From the IMG/VR virus record IMGVR_UViG_3300042273_000209: 36,310 bases of DNA. The stretch is one strand, 5' to 3'. Positions 2,643 through 29,352 of the stretch are shown here, piece by piece. The position numbers and the translations under genes were made by a program. Under the pieces are notes generated by a model. The model was not told the DNA's origin, did not search any database, and was given only the letters and a program-made list of their open reading frames with translations. The stretch's first letter is position 1; each line of letters begins with the position of its first letter. The DNA comes from a virus.

Positions 2643-3134
2643 GTGGCTAAGATCAAAGTGACAAAAAAGCGCGTTGAGGAATTGACTCCATACTCCAGAA
2701 ATTCAAGGACGCACAGCGACGCGCAGGTCGCGCAGATAGCAGCATCTATACGCGAGTTTGGTTTTATAAATCCCGTCTTGGTTGACGCGGAAAACAACAT
2801 CATCGCCGGCCATGGGCGCGTGCTGGCAGCCCGAAAACTCGGTCTTGAGGAAGTGCCGTGTGTACTCCACGATCATCTGACGGAGACGCAGCGCAAGGCG
2901 TATATCCTTGCAGACAACAAACTTGCGCTCAATGCAGGATGGGATGAAGACATGCTCCGCTTGGAATTGCGCGAGCTTGGTGACATGGGTTTTGATTTGG
3001 AGTTGACGGGGTTTGATGAGGTAGAAGTTGAGGCATTAAACCATAAGGTGAATATAGATGATTTTTTTTCAGACAGAGAAGGAGAAGTGCCAAAGGAACC
3101 TAAGTTATGCCCTCATTGTGGTGGTGTTTTATGA
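2643..3134 (+). CDS. ParB-like nuclease-domain protein (possible DpdB-like partner of DpdA)
   Basis: ParB N-terminal motif INPVLVD...IIAGHGRVLAARKLGLEEVPCV; GTG start; stop overlaps start of next gene. Confidence 0.6.
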   Translation: MAKIKVTKKRVEELTPYSRNSRTHSDAQVAQIAASIREFGFINPVLVDAENNIIAGHGRVLAARKLGLEEVPCVLHDHLTETQRKAYILADNKLALNAGWDEDMLRLELRELGDMGFDLELTGFDEVEVEALNHKVNIDDFFSDREGEVPKEPKLCPHCGGVL

Positions 3135-3865
3135 GGATTCACCTTGCGGGGATAGTTAGAGCTAGTTGTTGCATTGAAGAAGCAAGGAAGGCTCTTTTTG
3201 TTCTCGAATCGTTCCAGACTATAAATAGGTGGGTTGTAGAATCAATCCCGTATTGGAAGTCTTTTATCCTTGACAGTGGCGCTTTTACATATATGTCAAA
3301 CACTTCAAAAGGTGGAAGTGTAAATTGGGAAGACTATGTGAGCAGATATGCTGATTTTATCAAAAACCACAAAATCAAACATTACATAGAGCTTGACATT
3401 GATTCAATCGTCGGACTTAAGGAGGTTGAGAGATTACGCAATATCCTTGAAAACAAGGTAGGGTATCCATCAATACCAGTATGGCATAAAAGCAGGGGGA
3501 AAGATGAGTTTATACGCATGTGCCGTGATTACAAATATGTAGCGATTGGTGGAATCGTAACGAAGGAGTTCACACGAAAGGATCATAAATACTTCCCATG
3601 GTTCATAGACAAAGCGCATGAAATGGGAGCGGAGATACACGGGCTGGGATACACTTCAAGCAACTTGAGGAAATACCAATTCGATTCCGTTGATTCCACA
3701 AGCTGGCTTAGTGGCGGAAAATATGGCAGTTTATGCGTCTTGAAAAACAAAAAAATTAAATATGTTACCGTGAAGGGGAAAAAAATTTCACGGGATCAGG
3801 ATGCAAATGTTCATAACTTAAGAACTTGGATTATGTACCAAAAACTATTATACGATGGGAAATAA
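3131..3865 (+). CDS. dpdA: DpdA-like tRNA-guanine-transglycosylase-family protein (putative 7-deazaguanine DNA transglycosylase)
   Basis: ILDSGAFTYM resembles the TGT catalytic DSGGFQ motif; AT-rich cassette next to YhhQ-like gene. Confidence 0.5.
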   Translation: MRIHLAGIVRASCCIEEARKALFVLESFQTINRWVVESIPYWKSFILDSGAFTYMSNTSKGGSVNWEDYVSRYADFIKNHKIKHYIELDIDSIVGLKEVERLRNILENKVGYPSIPVWHKSRGKDEFIRMCRDYKYVAIGGIVTKEFTRKDHKYFPWFIDKAHEMGAEIHGLGYTSSNLRKYQFDSVDSTSWLSGGKYGSLCVLKNKKIKYVTVKGKKISRDQDANVHNLRTWIMYQKLLYDGK

Positions 3866-3877
3866 TCAGGAGGGTTT

Positions 3878-4486
3878 ATGGAAAAAAACAATAGAAACCT
3901 AATCACGATCAATGCTGTTTTTGTAGTCAGTCTTATCATGGCTAATGTCGTGGCGTCGAAAATCGTTGACGTTTTTGGATTTGTAGTTCCCGCTGCCGTT
4001 GTTGCTTACGGGATCACCTTCCTTTGCACGGATGTTATTGGTGAGATTTGGGGGAAGGAAGAAGCAAACAAGACCGTCAAATTGGGGTTTGTTATGCAAA
4101 TCCTATCTCTATGCCTTATCATTTTGGCGATAATGCTTCCGCCGGCGGTTTTTGCTGTTGAAGAGGGAAAGTCTTTTAATTCAATACTGGGGCAATCTGG
4201 AAGGGTGGTAGTTGCTAGTCTTATCGCCTACTTGGTAGCTCAATTCAATGATGTTTATGTTTTCCACAAACTGAAAGGCGCTTGCAACGGAAGAGCAAAG
4301 TGGATTCGGAACAATGGAAGCACTATTTTAAGCCAGTTTTTCGACACTGCAATTTTCATTACTGTGGCGTTTTACGGAGTAGTCCCTGACCTTGGATGGA
4401 TGGTTATCAGTCAGTATGTTGTAAAGGTCGTGATAGCGCTCTGTGATACACCTTTATTCTACTTCTTTACACGTAAAAGTGTATGA
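3878..4486 (+). CDS. yhhQ: Queuosine precursor transporter, YhhQ/DUF165 family
   Basis: Multi-TM protein; VVASLIAYLVAQFNDVYVFHKLK and CTDVIGEIWG resemble E. coli YhhQ; AT-rich. Confidence 0.7.
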   Translation: MEKNNRNLITINAVFVVSLIMANVVASKIVDVFGFVVPAAVVAYGITFLCTDVIGEIWGKEEANKTVKLGFVMQILSLCLIILAIMLPPAVFAVEEGKSFNSILGQSGRVVVASLIAYLVAQFNDVYVFHKLKGACNGRAKWIRNNGSTILSQFFDTAIFITVAFYGVVPDLGWMVISQYVVKVVIALCDTPLFYFFTRKSV

Positions 4487-4522
4487 AAAAATACTGGCGC
4501 AATGGGGTAGGAGGCGATTTTT

Positions 4523-5008
4523 GTGGCAGGGCCGCCAAGAAAACCAACGAAGCTAAGGATCCTGGAAGGGAACCCATCAAAGCGTCCCCTTCCAAAAAAT
4601 GAACCGGAGCCAGACCCTACAATGCCACAGTGTCCTGATTGGCTCATGGACGACGCTAAAGATGAGTGGAAGCGCGTTGCTCCGGAGTTGAACCGCATTG
4701 GATTACTGACAATAATTGACCAGACCGCGTTAGCAGGATACTGCCAGTCTTATGCAAGGTGGAAAAAGGCCGAGGAAGAAATCAAACTGCTCAAAAATAC
4801 AATATACCCATTAAAAGACGAAGCGGGAAACATTAAGGGCTTCCAGCAGTATCCACAGTACGGGATAGCAAATCAATGTCTAAAACAAATACGGGCGTTT
4901 TGCTCTGAGTTTGGGTTGACCCCGGCAGCGCGTGCGAAGATGGAATTGCCAACTGAGAGGAACCGTGACGACGACTTCGCCTCCAAACTTCGCTCGAAGA
5001 TAGGCTGA
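4523..5008 (+). CDS. Terminase small subunit, P27 family
   Basis: GTG start after AGGAGG; N-terminal GPPRKPTKLRILEGNPSKRP typical of P27-family small terminase. Confidence 0.8.
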   Translation: MAGPPRKPTKLRILEGNPSKRPLPKNEPEPDPTMPQCPDWLMDDAKDEWKRVAPELNRIGLLTIIDQTALAGYCQSYARWKKAEEEIKLLKNTIYPLKDEAGNIKGFQQYPQYGIANQCLKQIRAFCSEFGLTPAARAKMELPTERNRDDDFASKLRSKIG

Positions 5009-25496: not shown

Positions 25497-25509
25497 CCTC
25501 CCTTCCACA

Positions 25510-25540
25510 ATAAAAAAGAGGGGCCTTTCGGCCCCTCTCT
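25510..25540 (-). terminator. Rho-independent terminator ending the minus-strand block
   Basis: Minus strand reads gaggggcc-gaaa-ggcccctc then TTTTTT. Confidence 0.7.
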
Positions 25541-25677
25541 CTCGCGGTGAAAAACTTACACTCGTCCATGTGTCTTCCTCCTCCCTCTCTACCAGCATCT
25601 CCACCCTGGGGTGTGATGTTGCCGGGCTTGTAGGCGCACCGGCGGCCTATGTCCCCTTTGGGGCTCGCTTTCTGCCC

Positions 25678-25974: not shown

Positions 25975-26006
25975 TTTCGTCCTCCCCCTTGTTTTTTTAC
26001 CTGACG

Positions 26007-26059
26007 GGCCTCATCAGTGGCGGCGTCACCGCCAGACGCCCGCGAAGGGCGTTTCGGCC
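26007..26059 (-). ncRNA. Type II hammerhead ribozyme motif, copy 1
   Basis: Minus strand: ggcc-GAAA-stem III (cgccc/gggcg)-UC cleavage site-stem I (uggcgg/ccgcca)-CUGAUGA-ggcc; all core nucleotides present. Confidence 0.55.
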
Positions 26060-26089
26060 TAGGCTTCCTCCTCGTCGGGGATATAGTCG

Positions 26090-26127
26090 ACCTTTCGGTG
26101 AAGATGCCAGGGGCCCTTCGGCCCCTG
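26090..26127 (-). repeat. Intercistronic repeat element A (hairpin plus aucuucaccgaaaggu box)
   Basis: Same 16-nt box and flanking GC hairpin recur at 26466-26505. Confidence 0.5.
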
Positions 26128-26435: not shown

Positions 26436-26465
26436 GGCGATCCCTCCTTTTAGGGGCTATATGCA

Positions 26466-26505
26466 ACCTTTCGGTGAAGATAGTAGGGGCCCGAAGGGCT
26501 CCCGC
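26466..26505 (-). repeat. Intercistronic repeat element B (copy of box plus hairpin)
   Basis: Box identical to copy A; hairpin loop inverted with stem preserved. Confidence 0.5.
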
Positions 26506-26506
26506 G

Positions 26507-27064
26507 CTACGCGTCATCTCCCTTTTTCGCGATCGCCTCACGGGCGTTGTGGATGCCCGTGAGGACGCACGTGTACTCTTCTTTCAGGGCGGCGAGCGCC
26601 ACCCGTTTCCAGGCGGCGAGGGCCTCCTCTGGCGTCGGCGCGCGCCCAATCTCGCACCGACTCTTCATCCAGGAGGTCAGCCGATCGAACTGGCTTAGGC
26701 CCTCGACGCTGAACTCACAAACGTCACGGTATCTGTCGCTGAAACCGTGACGCAGCGTCACCAACCCCTGATGCCTCCCCTGGGCGGGGGAGATATACAG
26801 GTCCTCGACGCCGATGCCGTTGAACACGTCGAGGAAGAATTGCAAGGTGGACTCGATCTCAGACGCGGCGGCGAGTGCCGCCTCCGGGTGGGCGGCTGCC
26901 ATGGCCCGTGTGACCTCGGGGCCATATCCGCGATGCCCCGCCTCCCGGAACACGGCGTACCACCCCGCCGTGCCGTGGGGCGGCGTCGTCGTATCGTGCT
27001 GCTCCACCCCTCCGGAGAAAAAATCATCTCCGTGGGGCATGGGCCCCTCAGTGAACCACGACAT
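26507..27064 (-). CDS. Hypothetical protein (gene c)
   Basis: GAAGGAGGA RBS; protein-like composition. Confidence 0.6.
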   Translation of the reverse strand: MSWFTEGPMPHGDDFFSGGVEQHDTTTPPHGTAGWYAVFREAGHRGYGPEVTRAMAAAHPEAALAAASEIESTLQFFLDVFNGIGVEDLYISPAQGRHQGLVTLRHGFSDRYRDVCEFSVEGLSQFDRLTSWMKSRCEIGRAPTPEEALAAWKRVALAALKEEYTCVLTGIHNAREAIAKKGDDA

Positions 27065-27113
27065 CTTTTTCCTCCTTCCCCCGCCCGTGCGGGAATCAAC
27101 GGGGCCTGTGCCC

Positions 27114-27167
27114 CGGCCTCATCAGTGGCGGCTCTACCGCCAGACGCCCCTTGCGGGGCGTTTCGGC
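27114..27167 (-). ncRNA. Type II hammerhead ribozyme motif, copy 2
   Basis: Same architecture as copy 1; stem III closed by GCAA tetraloop, stem I loop differs; CUGAUGAG and GAAA cores intact. Confidence 0.55.
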
Positions 27168-27551
27168 CTAGGCGTCGTCGACGTCGTCGACGTCCTGCAG
27201 GGCCTCGAGGTGCTCCGCGATGAACTCGCGGAGTAGACGCCGTTTTTCCCTCATCGAGTCGGCCAGCTCGTAGTCTGCCGACTCGCTGACGGGGAGGGGG
27301 TACTCGCTGTACCCCATCCCCTTGCAGATGGCCCGCTCGACCATCTGCAGGAGCTTAAGGTCATACTGCCCCACGGGTTCGCCGTCGTACATCGCGAACC
27401 CGTGGACTAGTGCGTCTTGGACGCTGCGCCCCCACTGGCCAATCGTGCCAGCAGAGGCAAAAAACCCCACGTGGACACTGCTACCGCGCCGGGTGACGCG
27501 GTAGAGATCCCCGCGCCGGATCGGGTCGTGGTGCAATGAGAACCTTTTCAT
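27168..27551 (-). CDS. Hypothetical protein (gene d)
   Basis: GAAGGAGGA RBS before internal ATG; 5' UTR paralogous to that of gene c. Confidence 0.55.
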   Translation of the reverse strand: MKRFSLHHDPIRRGDLYRVTRRGSSVHVGFFASAGTIGQWGRSVQDALVHGFAMYDGEPVGQYDLKLLQMVERAICKGMGYSEYPLPVSESADYELADSMREKRRLLREFIAEHLEALQDVDDVDDA

Positions 27552-27622: not shown

Positions 27623-27652
27623 AGAAAAAAGGGGAGCCGAAGCCCCCCCTTT
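27623..27652 (-). terminator. Rho-independent terminator or attenuator after gene e
   Basis: Minus strand: 7-bp GC stem with UUCG tetraloop followed by UUUUUU. Confidence 0.6.
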
Positions 27653-27669: not shown

Positions 27670-28116
27670 TCAGGCCTCGCCGTTGGCCCGTGCCGCCATC
27701 CGGCGAGCACGGGCAAGAGAGCCCGCCGGAAGCTCCGGGGCGTAAAAGCCCCGGTGGCGGAAGATTGCTGTCTTCCGCACGGATCCGTCCGGGAGCGTCT
27801 CTTCGACGGACTCCCGTACGGAGAAGGCGTACACGGGCGCGATGCCCGCGTTCGCTAGCTCGCGTTCGAGTGGGGCCATCAGCCACATGGCCCCTCCGAT
27901 CATGGCGAGGACCTCGTCGCCTTCGCCGACGTTCCCCGCCGCCCGCCGGGCGATTTCGGCAATCGCCCGGGCGCGAGCCTCGGGCTCCCCGTCGCGGGGG
28001 AGCTCCGTGAAGGTGAGGAGCTCCTTGAGCTCCTCGTGGTCGGCCCCGGTGAGGTCGACCACCCCGGCCTCGACCTGCTCGGTCGAGGCTTGGTGCTGCG
28101 TGAGATTCAGGATCAT
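27670..28116 (-). CDS. Hypothetical protein (gene e)
   Basis: AAGGAGGG RBS before ATG at 28116; longer upstream extension rejected. Confidence 0.55.
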   Translation of the reverse strand: MILNLTQHQASTEQVEAGVVDLTGADHEELKELLTFTELPRDGEPEARARAIAEIARRAAGNVGEGDEVLAMIGGAMWLMAPLERELANAGIAPVYAFSVRESVEETLPDGSVRKTAIFRHRGFYAPELPAGSLARARRMAARANGEA

Positions 28117-28270
28117 CCTGAATCCCTCCTTTCTGCCCCATCTGGGGGCGATGAGATCGGGCCGAGGCCCGTCGTTTCCTTTGTTCCCCCCGCTTGGCCG
28201 CCCGGAAAGGGCGTTGCCCGCCGACCGCAGCGTGGAGGCGCGGGGGTTGGTCGGCATCTACGGCCAGGAG

Positions 28271-29323: not shown

Positions 29324-29352
29324 ATTATATATGCCGTTGGGCAGTTGTGCAA
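29324..29352 (-). promoter_or_regulatory. Sigma70-like promoter for the minus-strand block (TTGCAC-17-TATAAT)
   Basis: Near-consensus -35 and -10 with 17-nt spacer on the minus strand. Confidence 0.55.

Follow-up and report, generated by a model that had tools for sequence, protein, structure and literature searches.

A compact type II hammerhead ribozyme predicted between two genes of a minus-strand phage operon

Natural type II hammerhead ribozymes are common in bacteria and often associated with prophages, and multiple hammerheads have been seen to flank single prophage genes or short blocks whose gene content is not constant (Perreault et al. 2011; PMC3088659). For the triple hammerhead arrangement of Agrobacterium tumefaciens, cleavage was shown in vivo, and the processing of long phage transcripts into operon- or gene-length mRNAs was already proposed in 2011 (PMC3088659). 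Three type II hammerheads of Desulfovibrio vulgaris, near hypothetical or phage-like genes, are likewise active in vivo by cyPhyRNA-seq (PMC8782182). A review from 2019 states that bacterial self-cleaving ribozymes cluster together and that their roles are largely elusive (PMC6765202).

Here, we describe a hammerhead copy, HH2, in a viral sequence of 36,310 nucleotides (IMG/VR record IMGVR_UViG_3300042273_000209; the whole stretch is called the window). The window is a tailed-phage genome whose large terminase is about 50% identical to those of Clostridia phages. HH2 lies in a minus-strand operon that runs from about 29350 to 25510, with a transcript of about 3.8 kb, and whose order in transcription, using our own gene letters, is a, b, a candidate HDV-like ribozyme, c, d, HH2, e, f, the first hammerhead copy (HH1), and g. 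The ORFs are small and mostly without known function, and include a ParB_N-domain protein, a weakly Csx20-like protein, and a member of phrog_9437. The features of the operon are as follows (R1 is a covariance model introduced below).

29324-29351, minus: strong sigma-70-like promoter TGCACA-16-TATAAT at the operon head; the same sequence heads the operon of a related locus, L248
28623-28653, minus: half-hammerhead (UAGGUC-GAAA plus a stem III hairpin) between a and b; R1 10.7 bits, E 0.48
28185-28255, minus: candidate HDV-like ribozyme; 37.3 bits in Rfam RF02682 (E 0.0015; threshold 44); predicted cleavage 5' of G28255
27168-27551, minus: gene d, the ORF upstream of HH2, 127 aa, no family assignment
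27115-27168, minus: HH2, a complete type II element by sequence, Rfam RF02276, model R1, and MFE fold
27079-27094, minus: 5'-UTR hairpin of gene e
27071-27075, minus: Shine–Dalgarno (SD) sequence GGAGG of gene e
27062-27064, minus: ATG of gene e
26507-27064, minus: gene e, the ORF downstream of HH2, 185 aa, five homologues
26007-26059, minus: HH1; predicted cleavage C26035/U26034; Rfam 29.0 bits, R1 67.2 bits
25511-25540, minus: terminator-like GC hairpin and T run at the operon end, read from the sequence and unlisted by a simple scan

In its location between co-directional phage genes, with several copies per operon and a gene content that is not constant, HH2 resembles the members described in 2011 (PMC3088659). 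The A. tumefaciens arrangement is alike in that several hammerheads flank single genes or short blocks in one transcript; its genes differ, and the operon described here combines two hammerheads with a candidate HDV-like ribozyme. Compared by description, the D. vulgaris ribozymes are alike in type and in their phage-like neighbors, but they are spread over three sites in the genome and do not share an operon. Since both the multi-hammerhead phage arrangement and the mRNA-processing idea were published in 2011, HH2 leaves existing knowledge unchanged. What the locus adds is a clean, unannotated phage operon punctuated by ribozymes, with two hammerheads and a candidate HDV-like element within 2.3 kb.

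Read 5' to 3' on the minus strand, the HH2 RNA and its immediate flanks consist of the following pieces, with the predicted cut falling between UC and UGGCGG.

27169, minus: unpaired A immediately 5' of stem II (column A3), invariant in alignments A1 and A3
27165-27168, minus: stem II 5' strand GGCC, whose G27168 doubles as the final base of the upstream ORF's UAG stop
27161-27164, minus: core G12 A13 A14 plus A15.1 (GAAA), invariant columns
27145-27160, minus: stem III hairpin CGCCCC-GCAA-GGGGCG, from sequence, fold, and orthologous copies
27143-27144, minus: U16.1 and C17 (UC); predicted scissile bond C27143/U27142, placed by the hammerhead consensus (PMC3088659)
27126-27142, minus: stem I hairpin UGGCGG-UAGAG-CCGCCA, whose loop matches the family consensus U-NNN-G
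27119-27125, minus: core C3-A9 (CUGAUGA), by pattern match
27115-27118, minus: stem II 3' strand GGCC, read from the sequence
27100-27115, minus: GC hairpin (C)GGGGC-ACAG-GCCCC(G) abutting stem II, from fold and alignment

The core positions C3 U4 G5 A6 N7 G8 A9 are all present (CUGAUGA, 27125-27119), the A15.1-U16.1 pair is intact, and position 17 is C27143, in keeping with H (not G) at that site; among the viral relatives discussed below, position 17 is C in 137 of the 141 matches listed. The helices measure 6 bp for stem I, which closes on U1.1-A2.1, 4 bp for stem II (G10.1-C11.1), and, with the A-U pair counted, 7 bp for stem III, which carries a GNRA loop. With zero mispairs beside the core, HH2 falls within the acceptance rule of PMC3088659. 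The strand order (stem II 5' strand, GAAA, stem III, UC, stem I, CUGAUGA, stem II 3' strand) is that of the type II permutation, with loops capping stems I and III and an open stem II. The UAG stop of gene d provides the leading G of stem II. At minimum free energy, the RNA folds into the hammerhead three-way junction, with z = -3.07 for 64 nt and z = -2.60 in a 143-nt context. In core, A15.1-U16.1 pair, C17, and a topology with a short open stem II, HH2 agrees with the type II members of RF02276 and PMC3088659. Taken together, the sequence features indicate that HH2 is very probably a genuine type II hammerhead ribozyme within a minus-strand phage operon, predicted to cleave itself after C27143.

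At Rfam gathering thresholds, there are zero matches anywhere in the window. When scanned by E-value, RF02276 (Hammerhead_II) gives HH2 34.0 bits (E 0.0025) and copy 1 29.0 bits, against a threshold of 37; default annotation therefore misses HH2 by 3 bits, a shortfall that arises because loop I is short and the 3' tail is unmatched. Loop I of HH2 has 5 nt (U-NNN-G) as against about 10 nt in the RF02276 consensus. The compact type II form with a 5-nt loop I occurs in at least 120 IMG/VR contigs, and default Rfam thresholds overlook it though it is abundant in viral contigs. The covariance model R1 was built from 78 compact type II hammerheads from IMG/VR contigs, leaving out the window, a window-identical contig, and the nearest relatives from training, and the search was run with all filters off. 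R1 gives HH2 65.4 bits (E ~8e-17) and copy 1 a score of 67.2, and the best remaining, non-hammerhead score in the 36-kb window is 15.7 bits. The HH2 match is far beyond chance. An earlier, sequence-only reading of this DNA had claimed a second hammerhead copy here, and the intact core residues, the R1 score, and the hammerhead MFE fold bear out the element itself; its span, given as 27114-27167, was one base off (27115-27168), and its minus strand and type II topology are corrections to that reading, and besides the two ribozymes that it counted, the block has a candidate third one, of the HDV-like class.

Could the GC hairpins instead be a terminator, an attenuator, or RNA stability elements, with the core matches coincidental? 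Stems I and III are indeed stable GC hairpins, and the intergenic regions of the block hold several more. However, no U tract follows the HH2 hairpins, the terminator scan omits the site, and both copies, like all relatives, have 13 invariant core positions in exact register. The pattern GAAAC..GTC..CTGATGA has two matches in the window against 0.04 expected, and we find a non-ribozyme origin scarcely credible.

We next consider whether the RNA structure is under selection. The sequence-only reading had argued for this from the two window copies, and the details that it listed are all correct: stem III of HH2 is CGCCCC/GGGGCG with a GCAA loop, as read directly from the minus strand, loop I is UAGAG in HH2 and UGACG in copy 1 (26007-26059), and core, stem I, and stem II are the same in both. 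The "compensatory stem changes" that it claimed are not there, as stems I and II are identical and in stem III five pairs are common to both copies, with HH2 simply having one extra C-G pair and another loop. As the window copies alone hold no compensatory substitution, that argument is weaker than its conclusion, and it is the covariation in the family and the orthologous copies that uphold selection on RNA structure.

To gather the family, IMG/VR was scanned with a pattern that fixed only the core bases and the stem II 3' strand, yielding at least 120 contigs and 141 distinct matches listed. Among these listed matches, 122 of 141 have 6-7 consecutive stem I pairs (about one in shuffles), 124 of 141 have at least four stem III pairs, and a 4-bp stem II is found in 129 of 141, its 5' strand being unconstrained by the pattern. 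An alignment of 85 compact viral type II hammerheads has 99.3% of cells paired and double changes at 13 of 16 pairs, the covariation that the sequence-only reading had proposed to look for in relatives. The covariation score is 0.841 for the 85 sequences, compared to 0.184 when shuffled and at most 0.153 in slid controls. Stem I shows double changes at all six pairs of this 85-sequence alignment, and the stem II pairs (4-7/63-66 in alignment A1) are 98.5% paired with double changes in three of four. Two unpaired positions are invariant in 85/85, an A immediately before stem II (27169 in HH2) and the U that opens loop I (27136 in HH2).

The placement of the family is also regular. Among the 141 matches listed, 94 have a long upstream ORF whose stop codon overlaps stem II or directly adjoins it, and 121 are followed downstream by an SD sequence and start codon, at a median of 24 nt (50 nt for HH2). 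This placement fits an intercistronic role.

The scan also brought up several variants. In L028 (IMGVR_UViG_3300038412_000035), at least 8-10 type II hammerheads lie in about 7 kb, two of them with the core variant CCGAUGA (U4 to C), and in L013 the core of one copy is UUGACGA (C3 to U). Such cores may belong to natural variants or to dead copies. Outside the viral records, a Methylobacter sp. MAG (gammaproteobacterial; JAQTLI010000126.1, 7033-7099, minus) carries a type II hammerhead of 66.0 bits under R1 that differs from HH2 in stem III but not in stem I, loop I (UAGAG), core, or stem II.

Closer comparison is possible at the orthologous site, as the 185-aa protein of gene e has five homologues with 61-93% identity. 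A hammerhead stands upstream of the e homologue in L248/L249 (93% identity) and in L252 (66%), with 62.8 and 61.3 bits. Stem III is CGGGCC/GGCCCG in the L248 and L252 copies versus CGCCCC/GGGGCG in the window, so that pairing is kept through two compensatory flips. The stem III loops at this site, GCAA, GUGA, and GGAA, are all GNRA, N7 is U or C in the orthologous copies, and a G.U replaces one pair of stem II. Family covariation, the core-only pairing test, the independent model, and orthologous conservation together lend strong support to the hammerhead identity and to selection on the structure of the RNA. Beyond these loci, blastn of the block against 50,697 GenBank phage records gave zero matches, and peptide-pattern scans of IMG/VR with both flanking proteins gave a single match, a contig identical to the window.

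In L252, the block is followed by a RAGATH-18 RNA (57.5 bits), with an IS605 OrfB/TnpB-like gene as its neighbor, and also by a group I intron (63.1 bits).

L252, 1146-1206, minus: RAGATH-18 RNA
L252, 1253-2443, minus: IS605 OrfB/TnpB-like gene
L252, 2594-2918, minus: group I intron

Two other e homologues (61-66% identity) lack the ribozyme: in L254, the upstream gap is merely 27 nt and holds no hammerhead, and in L253, none is present in the 126 nt available upstream. Since these two more distant homologues do without it, the hammerhead is dispensable for gene e, and it might be an intact but neutral passenger that spreads with gene cassettes by recombination and may cleave with no regulatory benefit. 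Several observations agree with such a passenger. L248 has no hammerhead between its f homologue and the terminator, where the window has HH1; hammerhead-bounded cassettes come in a permuted order in L248 relative to the window; an L248 hammerhead upstream of a different gene matches HH2 in its 3' half, tail, and 5' UTR; and decayed half-copies exist. We nevertheless consider a neutral passenger unlikely, as the invariant core and covarying stems in more than 100 viral examples need purifying selection on the RNA, and the regular placement, from the stop codon to about 24 nt before the next start, and the compensatory changes at the orthologous site also speak against neutrality. The loci differ in their ribozyme-bearing junctions, so that the window, L248, L252, and L254 offer natural controls for what cleavage does to the messages, both to their stability and to their translation. 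Such a locus could thereby help to show what self-cleaving ribozymes are for in bacteria and phages, their roles being described as largely elusive (PMC6765202).

The permuted cassettes raise a further possibility, that the hammerheads also mark junctions of gene-cassette exchange, the shared 3' half serving as a portable homology patch whose ends could ligate or circularize, which we regard as rather doubtful. A near-identical 3' half of about 35 nt (stem I, core, and stem II) is common to the copies of the window, L248, L003, L004, and the Methylobacter MAG. HH2 has a chimeric look: L248 372-436 matches it in 3' half, tail, and UTR, but the gene downstream of HH2 matches the one behind L248 2564-2628. 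At L248 3520-3590, the stop codon of the f homologue runs directly into the terminator (ctgTAAgtttttcaccgcgagagagaggggcc), and the same junction sequence is found in the window at ~25505-25565 (minus), after gene g. Given this remnant of the junction, a stretch comprising a repeated motif (described below), HH1, and g looks inserted at the f-stop/terminator junction; in L248, the g homologue lies upstream of the hammerhead that precedes e.

The two window copies, sharing stem I, stem II, and core, could also be thought to act as a pair that excises and circularizes a 1108-nt RNA, from U27142 to C26035. This RNA would carry the HH2 3' half at its 5' end and the HH1 5' half at its 3' end, which could rebuild a nicked hammerhead because the stem II strands GGCC/GGCC are the same in both copies, and either the ribozyme or an RtcB-type ligase could seal the nick. 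Cleavage followed by ligation to spliced or circular products has been raised as a possibility (PMC3088659). However, the ends would be joined by just 4 bp, other multi-copy phages such as L028 have stems that vary from copy to copy, and shared ancestry or gene conversion is a simpler account of the sequence identity; we judge circularization very improbable at this locus.

A point in which HH2 departs from most type II hammerheads described in 2011 is the region around loop I. A pseudoknot between loop I and the 3' tail is found in most, not all, type II hammerheads and was needed for fast cleavage in tested constructs; about 40% of all hammerheads use it, and it is non-obligatory (PMC3088659). 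In HH2, the loop UAGAG has no complement in the tail GGGGCACAGGCCCCG, and there is instead a GC hairpin abutting stem II. This hairpin (27100-27115) probably stacks on the short stem II. A hairpin at the same place is found in the lineage's other copies and, among the matches listed, in 10 of 141 viral relatives. Without the pseudoknot, activity of HH2 at physiological Mg2+ would depend on an alternative contact, and the two invariant unpaired bases, the A 5' of stem II and the U of loop I, would provide it as a tertiary contact between stem I and stem II. All that sets HH2 apart from known type II hammerheads is that it belongs to a compact sub-form, below the Rfam threshold, in which loop I has 5 nt, stem II has 4 bp, and the pseudoknot is missing.

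The tails of other copies show a different kind of complementarity. In HH1, the tail CGUCA is complementary to its loop UGACG, and in L003, CAUCA is complementary to UGAUG. A pseudoknot reading of these tails was dropped, as the tails of the family match the core CUGAN and not loop I. Among the 141 matches listed, the 3' tail after stem II is RUCAG, complementary to CUGAN, in 47, and UCAG occurs in 1 of 141 control windows. The R of the tail covaries with N7 (where N7 is C, R is G in 18/19; where it is U, R is A in 21 and G in 7; Fisher p = 2.7e-6). These RUCAG tails point to an alternative hairpin that would sequester the catalytic core. The HH1 tail has CGUCAG (26001-26006), which can pair with the core CUGAUG and is predicted to fold onto it after cleavage; the HH2 tail has no RUCAG, and HH2 thus has neither tail-loop I nor tail-core pairing.

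How would HH2 act within the operon? Once the stem II 3' strand has been transcribed, the three-way junction would fold, with a 4-bp open stem II, a 7-bp stem III, and a 6-bp stem I closed by the U-NNN-G pentaloop, and the RNA would then cleave itself after C17 (27143/27142) through internal transesterification. Owing to the type II topology, both of the ends so formed would carry a hairpin. The mRNA upstream of the cut would end in the stem III hairpin and a 2',3'-cyclic phosphate, and the one downstream would start at the stem I hairpin, bearing a 5'-OH, with two further hairpins and then an unpaired SD site behind it. Terminal hairpins impede 3' exonucleases in bacterial mRNA decay, and 5' hairpins and 5'-OH ends impede 5'-end-dependent RNase attack in bacteria. 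Given these end hairpins and the 5'-OH, both cleavage products should be stabilized and their fates uncoupled. HH2, HH1, and probably the HDV-like element would cut the ~3.8-kb transcript into two-gene and one-gene messages, whose stability and translation would be uncoupled from one another. A comparable layout is known from insulators of the RiboJ type, in which a hammerhead and a hairpin before the RBS remove the upstream RNA, leave a hairpin-capped 5' end, and uncouple expression. RiboJ is synthetic and derives from a type III satellite-RNA hammerhead, whereas HH2 is natural, of type II, and would also leave a hairpin on the upstream product. The hairpin-plus-SD module found before gene e recurs upstream of other genes in the window and in L248. 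The sequence-only reading had suggested that the ribozymes separate mRNAs, and such a role would fit the anatomy of the operon and matches the published reading of such arrangements (PMC3088659). For HH2 itself, we infer cleavage in vivo, the loop I contact, and the purpose of the processing.

The candidate HDV-like ribozyme starts 15 nt past the stop codon of a 113-aa ORF. Its P1 (GCCGACC/GGUCGGC, 7/7), P2 (CCCCCGC/GCGGGGG, 7/7), and P4 (CGCCC-UUUCC-GGGCG, 5/5) are fully paired; L3 UCCACGC is followed by GGGCAAC, J4/2, the place of the catalytic C in this class, is GCCAA and contains GGC, and the P1.1 bases CC/GG are present. P3 has two standard pairs and a C.U mismatch (with U28229) at the loop-closing pair. 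The predicted nested double-pseudoknot layout resembles that of phage HDV-like/theta ribozymes (PMC10879173; RF02682, F. prausnitzii), with an L3 identical to theirs and the GGGCAAC junction present. The candidate differs in having the C.U in P3 versus C-G in the known ones, in preceding an ORF where theirs precede tRNA, and in its score (37.3 vs 44 bits). As others have C-G at the loop-closing P3 pair, the candidate may be weakened. Viral matches to an HDV-like pattern in IMG/VR number 128, with a 7-bp P1 in 101 of them, in a comparison set gathered with a pattern derived from the window's own element. A loose-descriptor search for more HDV-like elements at hammerhead-bearing loci gave only noise.

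The half-hammerhead between a and b lacks the cleavage-site UC, stem I, and CUGAUGA, and its hairpin ends near the cleavage-site position. As the same half-element recurs at L248 701-735, it is probably a decayed copy that has kept its hairpin. An orphan 3' half that could complement it in trans was not found in the window.

A repeated motif, ATCTTCACCGAAAGGTyGmmTATAkCCCC, is present at 26453-26481 and 26077-26105 (both minus), each copy with a GC hairpin before it and an SD-like GGAGG after it. A ribozyme or promoter was considered for this 30-nt motif and rejected, as it has no Rfam match and no conserved hairpin, and the hexamer spacing is unfit for sigma-70. The exact motif is restricted to this phage in IMG/VR, with a diverged copy in L252 at ~90-125.

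After the HDV-like element, a 148-aa ORF (27673-28116, minus) is weakly like the CRISPR-associated protein Csx20 (NF040559, E 1e-7, below cutoff), and its L248 homologue is tagged PF27247 (MJ1673). Inside the operon, between c and d, lies a terminator-like hairpin with a U run (GGGGGGGCUUCGGCUCCCC UUUUUU; 27632-27649, minus), and the 124-nt c-d spacer is unusually stable (-68.1 kcal/mol, z = -3.42); this hairpin may cause partial termination or be another processing module. Finally, positions 3001-5000 (plus), about 2 kb just upstream of the terminase gene, have a GC content of 0.40-0.46 versus 0.55-0.68 elsewhere in the window, and may be recently acquired DNA.
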